Shown here: positions 4,259 to 25,485 of the stretch, in pieces
Layout of the letters: every line of letters starts with the position of its first letter
How positions within the stretch are numbered: the stretch's first letter is position 1
Assembly (NCBI GenBank): GCA_048938005.1
Contig: JBHLMQ010000042.1
Span: 1 to 27,420 of the forward strand
Direction of reading: 5' to 3'
DNA from: Promethearchaeota archaeon
GTDB taxonomy: Archaea > Asgardarchaeota > Lokiarchaeia > Sigyniarchaeales > SOKP01
DNA: 27,420 nucleotides
The notes under the pieces: generated by a model
Seen by the model: the letters and a program-made list of their open reading frames with translations, nothing else
What the model was told of the DNA's origin: nothing
Databases searched by the model: none
Translations under genes and position numbers: made by a program

Positions 4259-4846
4259 TTATTCTGATTTTTTACGCCATACGGTTAAATAGACAATAAG
4301 GAGAATTACCGCTGCGGGAATTCCAAAATAAATTACTAACCACATTACTGTTAAAAACCCTGCCCTAACGAAATAACTATATTCTAAAAAAGCAAATTGA
4401 GTGTCATAAAATCCATCTACAGCTACAAAGATACAAAACGCAATAAACATAAAAAGACCACCCCCACCGCCGCCACCCCAAGTTCTTGCTCTATGTGTTT
4501 CTTTCTTCGTTCTAGATTTAAATTCTTGCTTTTCTTCATCCGGTAATCTACGCCACCATAAATATCCTCCTATACCAAAAAATAATCCTGTAGGAAGACC
4601 AACAAATAATAGTTCCCATAATATTAAAAGAATCGCGAAACAGACTACATGCATTAATGTCCACTGATTAAATGTCCATGTACCTTGTCCACCAATAGGA
4701 GATGTTAGCATAAACCAAAACACCACTAAAATAGCACCTAAACAAGCGACAACTCCAGCAATAATTGCGATCATAAATGTTTTCCAATGTTCTCTAATTT
4801 TTTTTCCCCAAAATTTTTCGTCACTTAATTCTTCACTATTTTCCAT
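4259..4846 (-). CDS. Hypothetical membrane protein (about 4 TM, internal two-fold repeat, poly-Gly linker)
   Basis: 195-aa ORF with hydrophobic segments and a G7 run. It lies downstream of arsR on the same strand. Confidence 0.75.
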   Translation of the reverse strand: MENSEELSDEKFWGKKIREHWKTFMIAIIAGVVACLGAILVVFWFMLTSPIGGQGTWTFNQWTLMHVVCFAILLILWELLFVGLPTGLFFGIGGYLWWRRLPDEEKQEFKSRTKKETHRARTWGGGGGGGLFMFIAFCIFVAVDGFYDTQFAFLEYSYFVRAGFLTVMWLVIYFGIPAAVILLIVYLTVWRKKSE

Positions 4847-4990: not shown

Positions 4991-5383
4991 CTATCCAAAA
5001 CTGAATTTTTGATTAAAATTAGTAAGATACTTTTCAAATTCTTTCTTTAATAAGGTATAGTATGTAAATTTCCCTTTTTTCCATCCACGAATCAAGCCTA
5101 CTTTTTCTAATTCTCGTAAATGATGAGATATTGATGGTTGAGATTTATCCAAGATCGCTTCCAATTCGCAAACACAGCGTTCTTTATCCTTTAATGCAGT
5201 TAATATGGTTAATCGTTCCCTATTTCCTAATGCATGAAGAAATGTTAACAGCGAAGTTAATTCTTGATCAAATTTTAAATCGTTTCCAATTTGGTGTAAA
5301 TTTTTAAAGTATTTATCACCATTAGAGCAATCATCACATCCACATAATGTATCTTTAATCTTTTGCTTTCTTTCGATATTCAT
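4991..5383 (-). CDS. arsR: ArsR/SmtB family metalloregulatory transcriptional repressor
   Basis: ALGNRERLTIL...ERCVCELEAILDKSQPSISHHLRELEKVGLI...GKFTYY: winged HTH with an alpha3 CVC metal site, plus an N-terminal CGCDDC. Confidence 0.93.
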   Translation of the reverse strand: MNIERKQKIKDTLCGCDDCSNGDKYFKNLHQIGNDLKFDQELTSLLTFLHALGNRERLTILTALKDKERCVCELEAILDKSQPSISHHLRELEKVGLIRGWKKGKFTYYTLLKKEFEKYLTNFNQKFSFG

Positions 5384-5447
5384 CCAAATAACCTTGTATT
5401 CTTATATTGTCACTATAATAGAACGATTGAAATTATAAAAATTTTAT

Positions 5448-5491
5448 TCATATCTAAAAAGATTGATTCATATCCAAATATTTTTATATGA
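5448..5491. promoter_or_regulatory. Candidate ArsR operator(s) in the divergent promoter region
   Basis: 5468-5491 TCATATCCAAAT|ATTTTTATATGA is a 12+12 imperfect palindrome (10/12 match). A degenerate copy, TCATATCTAAAAAGATTGA, lies at 5448-5466, and ATTCATATC is directly repeated. Confidence 0.55.
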
Positions 5492-5592
5492 TATATTCTT
5501 TTATTATTTCAGCTTCTTTAAAGTTAAAATTTATAAAAAATGAAAATATCAAAAATAAAAATAAAATTGATTTAATGAGGTAGTAAATGTAA

Positions 5593-5676
5593 ATGGGAGA
5601 GAAAACTAAAGAATGTTGTTCTGAAGAATCAAAAAATGATGATGGGGAATCCCAATCAAAAGAAGGATGTTGTTAA
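5593..5676 (+). CDS. 27-aa peptide with two Cys-Cys pairs (putative metal(loid)-binding micro-protein); not in the ORF track
   Basis: MGEKTKECCSEESKNDDGESQSKEGCC*, preceded by GAGGT at 5577-5581. It is the first ORF of the operon divergent from arsR. Confidence 0.65.
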   Translation: MGEKTKECCSEESKNDDGESQSKEGCC

Positions 5677-5745
5677 AGTAAAAAGAATTCACTTTAAGGC
5701 AATATTTGAAATATAGAAGATCACAATTTTTAGGAAGTTCAAAAA

Positions 5746-6357
5746 ATGAATATTATTGGTATATCAGGGACCCCTAGAAAAAATGGGAATAGTGAAATCC
5801 TCTTGGAGTATGCTTTAAAACCTTTTAAAAATAATGGATGGAATGTTAAAACTTTTCTATTAAGTGAGTTAACTATAAATCATTGTAAAGCTTGCGATTC
5901 ATGTAAGGAAACTGGAACTTGTATTATTAAAGATGATATGCAAGAAATTTATGATGCATTTCGATGGTGTCATGCCATCATAATCTCAAGTCCAGTTTAT
6001 TACCTCAATGTTAGTGCTCAATTACTTTCCTTACTTGATAGACATTACGCCGTACATGTCGAAAAACCTTTAGAAGGAAAGGTAGGGGGAGCACTTACGG
6101 TCGGTAATGGAACATGTGGAGGTCAAACATTAGCACTTAATACAATTTATTCATGGATGCTTTCATGCGGAATCATATGCATTCCCGGGGAATTAAATGG
6201 AGTCAAATCTGTAGCCGACAAGCCAGGAGATATTTTAAATCAAGAAAACCAGTTAAAACAAGCAGAAATTCTTGGATTTAATATACTAAAAGTGACAAAA
6301 GAATTAAAATCCATTACTGGGTTTAATAAATATCCTAAATACAATAAAAAGGTGTGA
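5746..6357 (+). CDS. Iron-sulfur flavoprotein (Isf) / flavodoxin-like NADPH-dependent FMN reductase family
   Basis: GTPRKNGNS FMN loop, compact CKACDSCKETGTC (Cx2Cx2Cx5C) cluster motif, DDM, and SPVYY. Confidence 0.9.
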   Translation: MNIIGISGTPRKNGNSEILLEYALKPFKNNGWNVKTFLLSELTINHCKACDSCKETGTCIIKDDMQEIYDAFRWCHAIIISSPVYYLNVSAQLLSLLDRHYAVHVEKPLEGKVGGALTVGNGTCGGQTLALNTIYSWMLSCGIICIPGELNGVKSVADKPGDILNQENQLKQAEILGFNILKVTKELKSITGFNKYPKYNKKV

Positions 6358-8033
6358 ATAAAATCGCTGTAGTATATATGCGAAAGCTGGAATTAGAACC
6401 AGAAACCTATGATTCAAAATTCACAGAACTTACTAAAAGTACGAATATTAAAGTTCATGATTGGATATTAGAAAGGATTAAAGTACCGCAAATAATCTTA
6501 GAAGTAGGATGCGGAACAGGTACTCTTGCTAAAAAGATGGCATTAAAAGGCAACGAAGTTCTAGCGATTGATCAAAACTTGCAAATGATAAATATTGCGA
6601 TGAAAAACTATTCTTCTAAGGAAGAACTGAAACTTTTATATCAAATAGGCTCTATTCATAATTTACCTGTAGAAGATAATTCTAAAGATTTAATTGTTAG
6701 TACATTCATGCTTTCAGAGCTTAGACCATTTGAACAACAAATCTTTCTCAGAAAAATATGGAAAGCATTGAAGCCAAAAGGACGAGTTCTTCTCGCAGCA
6801 GAATTTATGCCCTCAGGATTTTGGAGGATATGGTTCAAAATAAAGAGATGGTTGTACAAAAAAAAATTAAGGAGACTTCGGTTAGAGAGTACGTTTATAG
6901 TAAAATGGTTTTTCAATTATTTAGAACCTATAGGTTTTAAAATTGTAGCAGAAAAAAAATGGAGACATGGATCTATTCGAGCAATTGAACTAGAAAAAAT
7001 TGATGATGAGAATTTAAACGAACCAGGATTTTACCGTCCTAATCCCCGAAAATTTAAGGGTTTACGTGCGCAAATGAATATTTATCGTTGCATTTTTACA
7101 GGACAAGTAGACCATGTTCCAATTGAACCAGGAATTTACCAATCTGGAAATCCAGATGAGAATTCTCCTGTTATAGTAACTGCAAATTATATTTACACTT
7201 ATATTAAAGTAATGCGTGCTCTTAAAGGAATAGATGCATGGGTTTTGTGTGTAGATTCAAGAGGAATAAATGTATGGTGTGCTGCGCGAGGAAATGATTT
7301 TGGAAACAAGCAATTAATTGAAGCAGTTGAAGCAACTGAAATTGCAAAGATCACCAGTAAGAAAACATTATTTCTACCTCAACTATCTGCTGGAGGGATA
7401 GCAACACCTCTAATAAAAAGTGAAGCAGCAAATTTTCCATTTAATTTATTATACGGTCCTGTTTGGGCTAAATATCTACCTCAATTCCTTGAAGAACGCC
7501 CTGCCCATAAACCTGATAAAATGAAATTGGCAAGATTTTCATTATCCCATCGTCTTCGAGCTGGAATAACACATACTACTTTTTTATTTCGAAAAGTTTT
7601 TCTATTACCTAGCATTGCTTTGTTTCTGCTATTGATGGTACTTGTACTTACTGATACCTTATGGATAGGTAAATTATGGATAGTTGGTGAATTTTGGCTC
7701 TGGATAATTATAACAAACGCTTTAATTGCGATATTAATTCCTATTACAAATTTCACACGGAAATTTATCATTAAAGGAATAATTTTTGGAGTTATCAACA
7801 TACTATTGTTCATTGGGATTTCTTGGCTTTTAGGTACCTCAATACCTTCGATTTTCTTGAGTCTTTGCTTGTATTTTTGGTTAGCATTTTTCGCTACAAT
7901 GTCGTTTAGTGGATATACGATGGCAACCAGCCCTCGAGAAATTCAAGACGAATATCCCATTTTTACTAAAATAAATATAACTTTATTAATAATTGGTCTC
8001 ATAACCAAGGCAATTGCTTTTATTTTTTTTTAA
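6354..8033 (+). CDS. hgcA: Fusion of a class I SAM-dependent methyltransferase and an HgcA-like corrinoid-binding/transmembrane protein
   Basis: Residues about 1-215: LEVGCGTG, AID, DLIVSTFML, LKPKG. Residues about 250-385: IEPGIY.GNPDENSPVIVTANY...AWVLCVDSRGINVWCAA...LPQLSAGG...YGPVWAKYLP, collinear with the HgcA/CdhD-like cobalamin domain. Then about 5 TM helices with MSFSGYTMATS, matching the HgcA MNFTGSTxxTS position. The GTG start overlaps the Isf stop (GTGA). Confidence 0.85.
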   Translation: MNKIAVVYMRKLELEPETYDSKFTELTKSTNIKVHDWILERIKVPQIILEVGCGTGTLAKKMALKGNEVLAIDQNLQMINIAMKNYSSKEELKLLYQIGSIHNLPVEDNSKDLIVSTFMLSELRPFEQQIFLRKIWKALKPKGRVLLAAEFMPSGFWRIWFKIKRWLYKKKLRRLRLESTFIVKWFFNYLEPIGFKIVAEKKWRHGSIRAIELEKIDDENLNEPGFYRPNPRKFKGLRAQMNIYRCIFTGQVDHVPIEPGIYQSGNPDENSPVIVTANYIYTYIKVMRALKGIDAWVLCVDSRGINVWCAARGNDFGNKQLIEAVEATEIAKITSKKTLFLPQLSAGGIATPLIKSEAANFPFNLLYGPVWAKYLPQFLEERPAHKPDKMKLARFSLSHRLRAGITHTTFLFRKVFLLPSIALFLLLMVLVLTDTLWIGKLWIVGEFWLWIIITNALIAILIPITNFTRKFIIKGIIFGVINILLFIGISWLLGTSIPSIFLSLCLYFWLAFFATMSFSGYTMATSPREIQDEYPIFTKINITLLIIGLITKAIAFIFF

Positions 8034-8092: not shown

Positions 8093-8398
8093 GTGGTTAA
8101 AATAACTTTAAAAACAACATCAGTTAAGATGCATTTAGTTATTCCAAAAATCTCGATAAATCCTGATTTATGCACTGGTTGTGGTATATGTGGAGAAGTA
8201 TGCCCTTTTGGAATTCCAAAGTTAAATGATAATGGAAAATTCGAAATGTATGAACCTGAACGTTGTACAGAGTGTTCTGCTTGCAAACGGAATTGCCCTA
8301 CAATGGCAATAATGTTACAAGAGCAAAAAGGTTGTGGCTGTTTATGGAATGCTCGTTATATTGCTAAAAATCCACAAAATAATAGTTGTTGTGGATAA
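8093..8398 (+). CDS. hgcB: HgcB-like 2x[4Fe-4S] ferredoxin with C-terminal cysteines (alternative start at ATG 8129)
   Basis: CTGCGICGEVCP and CTECSACKRNCP clusters, then GCGC (HgcB GVGC position) and terminal SCCG. It lies immediately downstream of the hgcA-like gene. Confidence 0.82.
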   Translation: MVKITLKTTSVKMHLVIPKISINPDLCTGCGICGEVCPFGIPKLNDNGKFEMYEPERCTECSACKRNCPTMAIMLQEQKGCGCLWNARYIAKNPQNNSCCG

Positions 8399-8448: not shown

Positions 8449-9282
8449 TTAATACTCAAATTCCTTCTTTTTTTTTTCAAGAAACCTTTTTCTGGTCAAT
8501 AGATCCATTTCAGCATTTAACCAACAAAGTTCATCATATGTACAGCTTGAATTGAATACTTCCTCTGCCTTCCTCTTAATATCTTCAATAGAAGGCATAT
8601 CAAAATTCATCTTCTGAATTTTTTCTCCAAGGAGCCAGCATAACTGGTCGTATGTATATCCATCTAGTGAAAGGAAATAAGCTGCTTCCCTTATTTGTGT
8701 ATTAAAATCTACTTCTACCGGTTCTTCTCTTACTTCTTTTATAATAGCAACCTTTTCGTCCTCTTTTTTTTTTACTTGAACTGGAGGTTGTTCAAACCTA
8801 ATGAACTTAACAGTAGTAGAAGGTTCTTGTACTTTTTGCGGTTCAACCCTCCGATGATCTTTAATTTGCTTGAACCATCTTAGTAATCTCTCTTCAACAC
8901 TAATTTCTCTCTCTTTTGGAGTTCCATTAAGACCAATAGATTTGATAGTTTCGGGGGGTACTTCAAATACAAATTCTGGTCTTCGCTCAACTGTCTTGCC
9001 TGGTATTAATCCCTTTTCTAAATTGTGCATCATAGCTAAAAAGGAACCATATTCTCGTTTTTGTTTCATTATGAGAATTTTTGCTGATCCGCCACGTTCT
9101 TTATCTATTTTCCTTGCAATGTCCGCAGTAATATCTTTTTTTGCTTGAGATACTTTTAATCCTACCCAAATATAAATAGTGTTTTTTTGTTTATCATCAA
9201 CAAGAAAAACCTCGTTTTCTTCGAAAGATAATTTATCTAACTTAATTAATTCTGCCTTATCATTAATATTAAATAATCGCAT
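8449..9282 (-). CDS. Gelsolin-domain protein with a C-terminal tandem helical repeat (Asgard gelsolin-like)
   Basis: SFEENEVFLVDD...TIYIWVG...AKKDITADIARKID...KREYGSFL matches a single gelsolin fold. The C-terminus has two TYD(Q/E)LCWL repeats. Confidence 0.7.
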   Translation of the reverse strand: MRLFNINDKAELIKLDKLSFEENEVFLVDDKQKNTIYIWVGLKVSQAKKDITADIARKIDKERGGSAKILIMKQKREYGSFLAMMHNLEKGLIPGKTVERRPEFVFEVPPETIKSIGLNGTPKEREISVEERLLRWFKQIKDHRRVEPQKVQEPSTTVKFIRFEQPPVQVKKKEDEKVAIIKEVREEPVEVDFNTQIREAAYFLSLDGYTYDQLCWLLGEKIQKMNFDMPSIEDIKRKAEEVFNSSCTYDELCWLNAEMDLLTRKRFLEKKKKEFEY

Positions 9283-23689: not shown

Positions 23690-24841
23690 TTATTTTCTAT
23701 ATTTCCCATAAGTTTTACATGTGTCTATCATAATTTTTACATTTTCAAGTTTAGCATTATCAGGTATTTCTGAACCTACAAAAAGTCCACCACCTTCAGC
23801 ACATTTATCAATTATCTCTTTTGTTTGTTTTTCAACCATAGCTGGAGTTCCTAATGTAAATAAAGAAGGTTTTAGATTTCCTTGAATGCACATATGATCA
23901 CCCAATATATCCTTTGCTTTGAAAATATCGGTTCTCTCATCCATATGCATGTAAATTCTTCCTTTTGGTAACTCCCTTAAATAGTGTAAACGATCTGTCC
24001 AATTAGTATCCATGTGAAGTTGTACAATAAATCCATCGTTTACATATCTGGAGACCATTTTCTTGAAATACGGCCAGAACAATTCTTCAAAATGCTTGAT
24101 AGAGATAAAATCAGAACTCGCTCTTGCTGCCCCAACTAAAATAGTCTTTCCACCGGATTTTAAAAAACCATATTCTCCCATTAAAATCAATTTATCAATC
24201 AGATAATCACTTACTTCTATTATTTTATGAGGGTACCGATATATGTCTTTCATGAAGTTAGTTGAACCCCTAAATACAGATAAAAGATCGAAAGGAGGAA
24301 TTGCTGCTCCATCATTGAAGGTAGGTACTTGAAATTCTGTCCACCATTTTACAGTATTTTCTTTAACTTTTTCACCTATTTTTCCTAACTTCCTCATATC
24401 TTTCATGCTTGCCCTTCTAAAATTTGCTAACCAGAACAATCCTTCTTCGATTATGCGATCATAATCGTTTTCAGTCATAAATGGATCTGTAAGGCTTTGC
24501 TCAAAAAGTTGTGGCGATGCATTTTTATCTAGCATACGTCCGGGTAATCTCCAATCAAGGTAAAAAACTGAAAAAAAATCGGGAAAGGGATTAACGTATT
24601 GCATATACATTCCACCTCCTGCCATAGCAATATCATATCCACCTAATTTATGATAGATCCACTCATTTGCTGCTTGTGATTTATCCGGATCTTCAATCAT
24701 TTCCTGAGCAGTAACATCAGTATAGTATACCGGAAGAAAGTCTATTAGAGGCCAAACAGGTACTCTATCAGGTTCCTTTAAATCTATAGCAGTTAACACC
24801 CTTTCAACTGAAGTCATAGGTTCTTCCATGATATCCTTCAT
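23690..24841 (-). CDS. Uroporphyrinogen decarboxylase / MtaA-CmuA family methylcobamide methyltransferase
   Basis: ERVLTAI...PDRVPV, LHMD, CIQGNL, GTP..VEKQTKEIIDK, and IPDNAKLENV. The start was moved to ATG 24841 because of a strong upstream AAGGAGG. Confidence 0.85.
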   Translation of the reverse strand: MKDIMEEPMTSVERVLTAIDLKEPDRVPVWPLIDFLPVYYTDVTAQEMIEDPDKSQAANEWIYHKLGGYDIAMAGGGMYMQYVNPFPDFFSVFYLDWRLPGRMLDKNASPQLFEQSLTDPFMTENDYDRIIEEGLFWLANFRRASMKDMRKLGKIGEKVKENTVKWWTEFQVPTFNDGAAIPPFDLLSVFRGSTNFMKDIYRYPHKIIEVSDYLIDKLILMGEYGFLKSGGKTILVGAARASSDFISIKHFEELFWPYFKKMVSRYVNDGFIVQLHMDTNWTDRLHYLRELPKGRIYMHMDERTDIFKAKDILGDHMCIQGNLKPSLFTLGTPAMVEKQTKEIIDKCAEGGGLFVGSEIPDNAKLENVKIMIDTCKTYGKYRK

Positions 24842-24843
24842 CT

Positions 24844-25485
24844 TTATCCCTCCTTCACCCATTTTGTTATTATATTCACACCCTCAAAAGCATTGTCAGT
24901 AAATGCATCAGCTCCTGCTTTTTTCATCCACATTTCGTCAACAGGTAAACCACCAATTATGATTTTTACTTTATCTCTTAACCCTTCCGTTTTCAATGCT
25001 TCTGTTATTTCTTGCATAGCCTCAAGAGCTACTGTGAGTAATCCTGAATATGCAACAATACGAGCATTTGTTTCTTTTACTTTTTCAATAAATACTTCGG
25101 GTGGAACATCAACACCTAAATCGAACACTTCAAATCCAGCGGATTGCAAAAGTGTAACAAAAATATTTTTTCCGATATCATGCACATCACCTTGGACTGT
25201 TCCAACAACAACAGCTATACCCTGCTGTCCGCTTTCTGTCTCCTTTTCTAATGCAGGTTGAAGAATTTTAGCAGATTTTTGGAATATTTCTCCAGCCATT
25301 ACAAGCTCAGTTAAAAAATATTCTTTTTTATTAAATTTATCTCCAATAATTTCAACGCCCTTGCGTAGAATATCAATTATATCCTTTGCATTAGTTCCCT
25401 CCTCTAACAATTTCCTCACAAGGGAATATGACCTTTCTTCTTCCAACTCTACAACTGCATCAATAAGTTCTTCTTTACTGCTCAT
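24844..25485 (-). CDS. Corrinoid (B12-binding) protein, MtaC/MttC-like
   Basis: B12 cap domain (EYFLTELVMAGE), GDVHDIGKN (DxHxxG), DLGVDV, YSGLLT and IGG. Upstream GGAGG. Confidence 0.93.
   Translation of the reverse strand: MSSKEELIDAVVELEEERSYSLVRKLLEEGTNAKDIIDILRKGVEIIGDKFNKKEYFLTELVMAGEIFQKSAKILQPALEKETESGQQGIAVVVGTVQGDVHDIGKNIFVTLLQSAGFEVFDLGVDVPPEVFIEKVKETNARIVAYSGLLTVALEAMQEITEALKTEGLRDKVKIIIGGLPVDEMWMKKAGADAFTDNAFEGVNIITKWVKEG

Follow-up and report, generated by a model that had tools for sequence, protein, structure and literature searches.

The vicinal dithiols closest to those described here are found at the tail of HgcB and on the N-terminal extension of HgcA, and they have been proposed to acquire Hg(II) or methylmercury and to pass it on (PMC7305189; bioRxiv 10.1101/2022.07.06.499078). 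In canonical HgcA the extension carries a Cys-Cys (CC) or Cys-Sec motif (bioRxiv 10.1101/2022.07.06.499078), and a double mutant of the C-terminal Cys pair of HgcB is reported to lose 95% of activity. The methyl donor of HgcAB is reported to be S-adenosylmethionine (SAM) (PMC11588087), and in one bacterium hgcAB is described as controlled by an arsenic-responsive ArsR-like regulator (bioRxiv 10.1101/2022.10.17.512643). The step at which substrate is supplied and product released is left open in published HgcAB models. Here we analyze a stretch of 27,420 nucleotides (nt) from a Promethearchaeota archaeon (GenBank assembly GCA_048938005.1, contig JBHLMQ010000042.1; hereafter the window), in which a micro-gene, cc (5593..5676, forward strand), encodes a 27-residue acidic peptide with two CC pairs. 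It lies upstream of a gene that joins a SAM methyltransferase to an HgcA-like corrinoid domain (the fusion gene) and of a gene for an HgcB-like ferredoxin. Comparison with related genomes marks cc as a real, conserved small gene restricted to two genera, and we tentatively favor a role for its product as a ligand for soft metals or metalloids.

No description of such a peptide was found in the main texts of the literature searched, supplements aside. A study of hgcAB neighborhoods lists ArsR, MarR, GntR and antitoxin-like regulators upstream of hgcA and reports no small Cys peptide (PMC10349881). Micro-proteins below the limits of gene callers are mostly invisible, and cc provides a comparatively validated example from Asgard archaea.

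The cc reading frame and its conservation

The open reading frame (ORF) of cc comprises 84 nt, with an ATG at 5593 and a TAA stop at 5674–5676. The 27-residue string given in the original prediction is the exact translation of this frame, and the ribosome-binding-like site named there is readily located: a Shine-Dalgarno-like GAGGT stands at 5577..5581 on the same strand, 11 nt 5′ of the ATG. At 27 residues, cc indeed falls under the cutoff of the ORF list, which by default is 60 residues. The CC pairs occupy residues 8–9 and 26–27, 16 residues apart, and the four Cys make up 15% of the peptide. Eight residues are acidic and four basic, and after Met1 there is no aliphatic or aromatic residue. 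The description of cc as unannotated holds for families and function: no Pfam or NCBIfam family matched the peptide at E ≤ 0.01, the metallothionein models thus included, and a profile search of the PDB gave no match at E ≤ 10. It does not hold for the ESM Atlas, where a 36-residue member stands letter for letter as a hypothetical protein; the best scores of this member against that atlas, 0.80–0.81, lie under the level of meaning.

Homologues were sought in all six frames of whole representative genomes with a profile of nine small ORFs and then of 26. The profile detected cc in 29 of 54 genomes of the same genus, that of the window included, and in 3 of 42 genomes of a sister genus. None of 39 genomes from the other genera of the family gave a match, and 265 genomes from other families of the phylum yielded three marginal matches only (E 0.02–0.05; one with an internal stop; none inspected). 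No second cc was found in the genome of the window. Small CC-bearing ORFs were also seen upstream of fusion-gene orthologues in 10 of the 20 loci fetched.

A coding alignment was made of 30 cc sequences from species-level genomes. All four Cys columns are invariant in 30 of 30 sequences, encoded by 109 TGT and 11 TGC codons and nothing else, a figure to be read with the caveat that the profile was itself built from CC-bearing sequences. The invariance is not merely an artefact of collection, since two copies without the C-terminal pair were picked up with this very profile. In G003 the 3′ half of cc has been replaced and runs into the start of the flavoprotein gene, without a second CC pair. 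In G051 the flavoprotein and fusion genes flank a second copy, which has no Shine-Dalgarno-like site and a decayed terminal pair; this duplicate shows what an unconstrained copy appears to look like.

Length differences among the 30 sequences are always whole codons. There are at least six separate internal types, comprising insertions of 2, 5, 7 and 9 codons and deletions of 1 and 2 codons, in addition to C-terminal extensions of 1–2 codons, and some of the insertions add a third CC pair. Pairwise differences amount to 0.27, 0.18 and 0.37 at the first, second and third codon positions, the third being the most variable. The summed ratio of nonsynonymous to synonymous differences (pN/pS) is 0.53 in frame and 0.68 and 0.71 in the two shifted frames, a real signal of moderate size. 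Besides Cys, the residues Lys4, Glu11, Lys14 and Ser22 are each kept in at least 90% of sequences. A Shine-Dalgarno-like match of at least 5 nt occurs at −22 to −3 in 24 of 30 cc copies, compared with 2 and 1 of 30 in two control windows; of the 23 long ORFs in the window, with each start set by the longest ORF, just 2 have one.

Contigs from four DNA runs covering 5380–5800 were also compared. The sole near-identical strain variant within cc, at 5622, is a synonymous change in a Ser codon seen in contigs of two runs; the contigs also included pieces of other species. One 175-nt contig skips 5487–5741; its short side measures only 23 nt and it differs at 10 other positions, so its most likely source is a related organism in which the genes are ordered differently.

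The frame and both CC pairs are thus kept at syntenic loci, with synonymous variation, and as far as conservation goes the original prediction withstands the comparison. From the sequences we infer that cc is translated. An ORF of only 84 nt in AT-rich intergenic DNA might arise by chance and remain untranslated. However, the frame, start codon, Shine-Dalgarno site and four Cys codons of cc are conserved across 30 species-level genomes, with in-frame indels only, and we find a chance origin barely credible.

Gene order at cc loci

Gene order was compared across 27 cc loci, to which the counts below refer unless stated otherwise; relatives are denoted by our genome (G) and locus (L) numbers. 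The commonest arrangement begins with a membrane-protein gene on the opposite strand, followed on the cc strand by a gene for a Cys-rich MarR-family regulator, cc, in some loci an iron-sulfur (Fe-S) flavoprotein gene, the fusion gene and the HgcB-like ferredoxin gene. The fusion gene lies 3′ of cc on the same strand in 22 loci. In 23 loci the gene directly before cc is a same-strand marR-type gene (at a distance of about 1.2 kb in G008), and a divergent gene for a Cys-rich ArsR takes this place in four (the window, G050, G046 and G003). That cc stays where MarR has been swapped for ArsR speaks for its linkage to the locus. The flavoprotein gene adjoins cc in 14 loci, usually after it and in G046 before it. 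Such an order, with cc after the flavoprotein gene, is seen in L038; cc can also be followed by a T-run or by unrelated genes. The claim that cc heads its operon fits the window, where it is the first ORF after the conserved promoter-like element on the ArsR side and is followed by the flavoprotein, fusion and HgcB-like genes. In the wider set of loci, cc also occurs without the fusion gene and its position varies.

The fusion gene is common in the genus: among 24 other genomes drawn from it, 22 had an orthologue listed, at 63% identity or more or as a fragment at 86%. A search with the fusion protein gave 26 named contigs, 13 with cc, 11 without and 2 cut short. In all 13 with cc, a 195-residue membrane protein lies to the left and a gelsolin-domain gene to the right. 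In a quick maximum-likelihood tree of the fusion protein, the cc-bearing loci form one clade (15 rows, Shimodaira–Hasegawa-like approximate likelihood ratio test 100), with cc in 13 of its 13 complete loci, and ArsR-type regulators appear twice within it.

Three loci belong to the sister genus. In G245 the pair of marR and cc is followed by an unrelated tetratricopeptide-repeat protein gene, and in G248 by the flavoprotein gene and dap genes. In G264 (L057), cc is directly followed by genes for an HgcB-like ferredoxin and a flavin-reductase-like ORF. The marR gene of L057 appears to be split, with two tblastn segments and a premature stop.

Regulators and regulatory DNA

The regulator gene divergent from cc in the window (4991..5383, reverse strand) encodes an ArsR/SmtB-family protein that matches HTH_5 at 58.7 bits and NF033788 at 76.7 bits (cut-off 55). 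Its N-terminal three-Cys cluster and CVC motif together account for five Cys that are invariant in six orthologues, and CVC-type sites are typical of metal(loid) sensors. In the MarR found at most other cc loci, five Cys are likewise invariant, among them those of a CxC that immediately precedes the recognition helix and those of a vicinal pair close to the C-terminus. Thiol-oxidation sensing is common among MarR-family regulators. No MarR orthologue (best match 24% identity) and no copy of the palindrome described below were found in the genome of the window. At one and the same locus, then, MarR with a palindromic site and ArsR with a different promoter region replace one another.

The intergenic regions of ArsR-type loci are built alike, on a conserved plan with two divergent TATA-like boxes. 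The cc-side box of the window belongs to an element resembling a B recognition element (BRE) and TATA box (5474..5489, forward strand) that is conserved in seven ArsR-type loci; in the cc-less ArsR loci L017 and L018, its counterpart is found some 70 nt 5′ of the fusion gene. Between the divergent boxes, two 9-nt direct repeats (5446–5454 and 5466–5474) make 5446..5474 a candidate ArsR operator. In MarR-type regions an A/T-only octamer follows a BRE-like CGAAAC and leads at once into a 14-nt palindrome, in 27 of 27 sequences. The palindrome is perfect in 9 of these and has at most three mismatches in all, and it lies about 52–67 nt 5′ of the ATG; it is absent from all three ArsR-type sequences. 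Judging by position and conservation, these elements probably act as promoters and operators. When five genomes were searched, the perfect palindrome occurred once per genome, at the cc promoter, in three of them, and the other two had a one-mismatch copy there. Other one-mismatch sites in the five were no commoner than with a reversed-pattern control, and no MarR regulon could be defined.

The constancy of the pair of marR and cc raises the possibility that cc is an accessory of the regulator, either delivering the sensed ion to MarR or ArsR, as CopZ does to CopY, or acting as an acidic anti-repressor that competes with DNA. This is the most constant pair at these loci, it stands alone in L040, L042 and G245, the perfect palindrome where present is always at the cc promoter, and the peptide is strongly acidic. 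However, cc persists without MarR and its palindrome in the genome of the window, and contact between cc and a regulator would be conjectural. We consider such a role unlikely. A complex prediction with two MarR chains and the 36-residue cc of G248 reached a score of 0.02, below the mark of 0.32 for a verdict either way.

A stretch of about 130 nt after cc is conserved in nine loci (L022, L023, L030–L032, L036, L043, L051 and L055) and includes a TATA-like box and a long T-run. The window retains just its first part, at 5677–5745. No conserved ORF and no Rfam match were found in the stretch, which could be a terminator or an internal promoter.

A short ORF with four Cys codons at the 5′ end of an operon, as in the window, could also be a cis-acting leader peptide or upstream ORF that tunes the downstream genes, its product being without function. 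Several features make this highly improbable. Residues besides Cys are conserved, cc has its own Shine-Dalgarno site and promoter-like element, its position relative to the flavoprotein gene varies and a T-run or unrelated genes may come next, and it also stands alone with MarR. In addition, neither an attenuator-like structure nor any Rfam family was found in the window and two further loci.

The HgcA-like and HgcB-like neighbors

Downstream of cc in the window is a gene for an FMN_red-family flavoprotein (5746..6357, forward strand; PF03358, 95.2 bits) with a compact four-Cys motif near residue 47. The fusion gene follows (6354..8033, forward strand) and encodes 559 residues, with a SAM methyltransferase part at the N-terminus, an HgcA-like corrinoid domain and a membrane C-terminus. 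The best NCBIfam match of the N-terminal part is CpaM (corrinoid protein-associated methyltransferase; NF043040), at 134.5 bits for a cut-off of 180; among the papers listed in a literature search, neither the name CpaM in the present sense nor the full family name occurred. The fusion protein scores 173 bits against HgcA (NF040863; cut-off 275), 176 bits against the HgcAB-like family (NF043039; cut-off 285) and 52 bits against CdhD (PF03599). A Cys of the corrinoid domain, in a cap-helix-like stretch, is conserved in 25 of the 25 loci that contain this part, and the fusion protein itself has no vicinal Cys pair. Next, 8093..8398 (forward strand) encodes an HgcB-like ferredoxin with two Fer4 motifs, which matches NF040864 at 56.7 bits (cut-off 99) and ends in a Cys-Cys-Gly tail that is kept in 22 of 24 loci.

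Because their scores lie under the cut-offs, these proteins are HgcAB-like and not HgcAB by the NCBIfam criteria. The designation of the locus as an hgcAB-like operon is apt in that an HgcA-like fusion and an HgcB-like ferredoxin do lie downstream of cc, and it should not be taken to mean more than likeness. SAM being the reported methyl donor of HgcAB fits the presence of a fused SAM methyltransferase. Together, 6354..8033 and 8093..8398 may represent a third HgcA architecture, in which the HgcA-like protein bears a CpaM-like SAM methyltransferase at its N-terminus and the HgcB-like ferredoxin is separate; no description of such a fusion with a separate HgcB-like gene was found in the main texts searched. 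The genome of the window also has a second, classical locus (contig C37, 37458–38938; L064), where the CpaM-like methyltransferase has a gene of its own and the next gene encodes a fused HgcAB-like protein; no Cys-rich small ORF was found upstream of this locus. In a published phylogeny, Asgard sequences fall among fused HgcAB (PMC10083202), an arrangement that corresponds to the C37 locus and not to the cc locus.

Two observations concern the cc-less relatives of these genes. The HgcB-like tail is about 20 residues longer, with an extra CxC, in 6 of 11 cc-less loci (L075–L080) and in none of the 13 with cc; as the six belong to one clade, this does not amount to an independent correlation with the loss of cc. 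In a cc-less ArsR-type locus of G014 (L019, 1290–1430), an unrelated basic ORF of 46 residues, with one Cys-Cys and a Shine-Dalgarno-like site, takes the position of cc between the promoter and the fusion gene.

The position of cc beside a SAM methyltransferase, corrinoid protein and ferredoxin suggests a further option, in which the corrinoid methyltransferase acts on the peptide itself, using it as a substrate, methylating its thiols or modifying it as a precursor peptide. Thiols are common acceptors in corrinoid-dependent methyl transfer. On the other hand, cc without the enzyme and the enzyme without cc both occur, and cc has no leader and core organization and no other maturation genes beside it. 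We regard this option as very unlikely.

A possible role for cc

The reading we favor, at somewhat less than even confidence, is that cc offers its thiolates to a soft metal or metalloid, as ligand, buffer or shuttle, in the service of the HgcA-like and HgcB-like pair. In solution the peptide would enclose a thiophilic species, Hg(II), As(III) or the like, between its four thiolates and store or carry it. The Cys-Cys tail of the HgcB-like protein and the corrinoid site of the fusion would receive this ion from cc, or give up the methylated product to it, so that cc would do as a free peptide what the CC or Cys-Sec extension does at the N-terminus of canonical HgcA. With no vicinal pair in the fusion, and with the N-terminus of the fusion taken up by the methyltransferase, such a role could fall to a separate CC peptide. 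The published findings on HgcAB given at the outset agree with this logic. Expression of cc would be set by a dedicated Cys-rich regulator, MarR at the palindrome after the TATA-like box in most relatives and the divergent ArsR in the window. A thiophilic theme appears to run through cc, the Cys-rich MarR, the Cys-rich ArsR and the CC-Gly tail of the HgcB-like protein, which speaks for this reading.

Several observations weigh against this reading. Both the enzyme pair without cc and cc without the enzyme pair are found, so by gene content cc is dispensable for the pair. The sister clade of fusion orthologues, at no more than 66% identity, has no cc; the 11 cc-less named contigs, whose fusion proteins are likewise at most 66% identical, mostly have a divergent ArsR, the fusion gene and the HgcB-like gene. 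In three same-genus loci the membrane-protein gene lies directly beside the fusion gene with neither marR nor cc, and inspection by eye of the cc-less intergenic regions between these two genes revealed no cc remnants. Upstream of six fusion orthologues from the same order (about 50% identity), there is likewise no small Cys-rich ORF. Conversely, 5 of the 27 loci have no fusion gene and consist of marR and cc with or without the flavoprotein gene, and cc likewise occurs without the fusion in the G245, G248 and G058 loci. The HgcA-like protein lies under the NCBIfam cut-offs for HgcA, so its substrate would not be assignable from the family. Four Cys in 27 residues with a net negative charge are unlike classical metallothioneins, and the in-frame pN/pS of cc is only moderately below that of its shifted-frame controls.

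The fusion-less loci also bear on a different reading. One of the five (G012) keeps the membrane-protein flank, and the other four follow an aldehyde:ferredoxin oxidoreductase-like gene or precede endonuclease IV. The company of MarR, often the flavoprotein, endonuclease IV and the aldehyde:ferredoxin oxidoreductase-like gene suggests a link to redox stress, which likewise counts against a metal(loid) role. On this account cc would be a thiol/disulfide or iron-binding redox mini-protein, with a minimal Fe(Cys)4 center or as a dithiol carrier, within an oxidative-stress module that includes the Fe-S flavoprotein and a MarR sensing thiol oxidation, and its adjacency to the HgcA-like gene would reflect co-regulation. 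In L046, L047 and L056, the order of marR, cc and flavoprotein lies between the aldehyde:ferredoxin oxidoreductase-like gene and endonuclease IV (L040 has the same without the flavoprotein). The 14 loci with an adjoining flavoprotein and the invariant Cys of MarR point in the same direction, and the ArsR of the window weakly matches the redox regulator MsvR, at 26 bits, far under the cut-off of 220. Desulforedoxin shows that such chemistry is possible. However, the regulator can be exchanged for an ArsR with a CVC-type site, and cc is linked more often to the fusion gene (22 loci) than to the flavoprotein gene (14 loci). A redox center would lack the shelter of hydrophobic residues, of which the peptide has none, and there is no Pfam match to desulforedoxin or rubredoxin. 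We judge a redox role doubtful, though it is the main rival to the reading we favor; if true, cc would be among the smallest redox-active gene products described.

Returning to the metal(loid)-ligand reading, a more specific and speculative version can be drawn by analogy with HgcAB. Here cc would be a diffusible substrate arm of corrinoid-dependent metal(loid) methylation, which captures the thiophilic substrate in the cytosol, passes it by thiolate exchange to the CC tail of the HgcB-like protein and accepts the methylated product, in trans taking the role of the CC or Cys-Sec extension of HgcA. We hold this version to be possible at best. If it were true, the 'unknown source' of Hg(II) and the 'exogenous thiolate' that figure in current HgcAB models would have in cc their first named candidate. 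More generally, if cc binds soft metal(loid)s, it would offer a testable handle on substrate supply and product release in HgcAB-type systems and would bear on what the widespread Asgard HgcA-like paralogues act on. The exchange of MarR for ArsR would then be a natural experiment on the controlling signal, metal(loid) or oxidant.

Further features of the window

The flanks that accompany cc in relatives are present in the window. To the left, 4259..4846 (reverse strand) encodes the 195-residue membrane protein, which has a run of seven glycines and no Pfam match and forms the left flank of most cc loci. The gene to the right, 8449..9282 (reverse strand), has a gelsolin-repeat product (PF00626, 28.6 bits) and is conserved in that place at cc-bearing loci. 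Farther away, 23690..25485 (reverse strand) contains ORFs of 213 and 390 residues, the first with an Asp-x-His-x-x-Gly motif of cobalamin-binding type recognized by eye. This pair may be another corrinoid protein and methyltransferase.

Comparison with known systems

In the way it would work, cc is most akin to the HgcB tail and HgcA extension, to ArsD or to a minimal metallothionein. The gene for ArsD, in the arsRDABC operon, adjoins that of an ArsR-family repressor, and the protein passes metalloid on to an enzyme encoded downstream; it has about 120 residues, a thioredoxin-like fold and an N-terminal Cys triad, and its vicinal Cys pairs bind As(III). The cc gene resembles it in its vicinal Cys and, in the window, its ArsR neighbor, but the peptide has 27 residues, no Pfam match and no homology to ArsD. 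CopZ is a small copper carrier that acts on the repressor CopY and has a folded ferredoxin-like domain with a CxxC site. While cc is likewise a small putative carrier encoded with a repressor, it has no fold or CxxC of the CopZ type, and a contact with its regulator would be a matter of conjecture.

Metallothioneins are small proteins without a hydrophobic core that fold around metal thiolates and are induced through ArsR/SmtB repressors; they have many Cys, in CxC and CxxC clusters. cc shares the small size and the absence of a hydrophobic core, but its Cys number only four, in two CC pairs; it is also strongly acidic, and no metallothionein family model matches it. Desulforedoxin is closer in length, with 36 residues that form a folded beta structure around an Fe(Cys)4 center held by a CxxC and one vicinal Cys pair. 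In contrast to desulforedoxin and rubredoxin, cc has a CC...CC pattern without CxxC, in addition to the differences in hydrophobic residues and Pfam matches given above.

The likeness to the HgcB tail and the HgcA extension lies in a vicinal CC on a predicted flexible segment, beside a corrinoid methyltransferase and a two-cluster ferredoxin. Unlike either of these, cc is a separate ORF of 27 residues with its own start and stop and with two CC pairs. The pentapeptide with a proline-flanked Cys-Sec that marks the HgcA extension is absent from cc, and its neighbor is only HgcA-like, with a SAM methyltransferase fused at the N-terminus, unlike canonical HgcA. By these comparisons cc belongs neither with the HgcB tail and HgcA extension nor with ArsD or the metallothioneins, since no model matches it, its length and motif differ from theirs, and it stands as a gene of its own.

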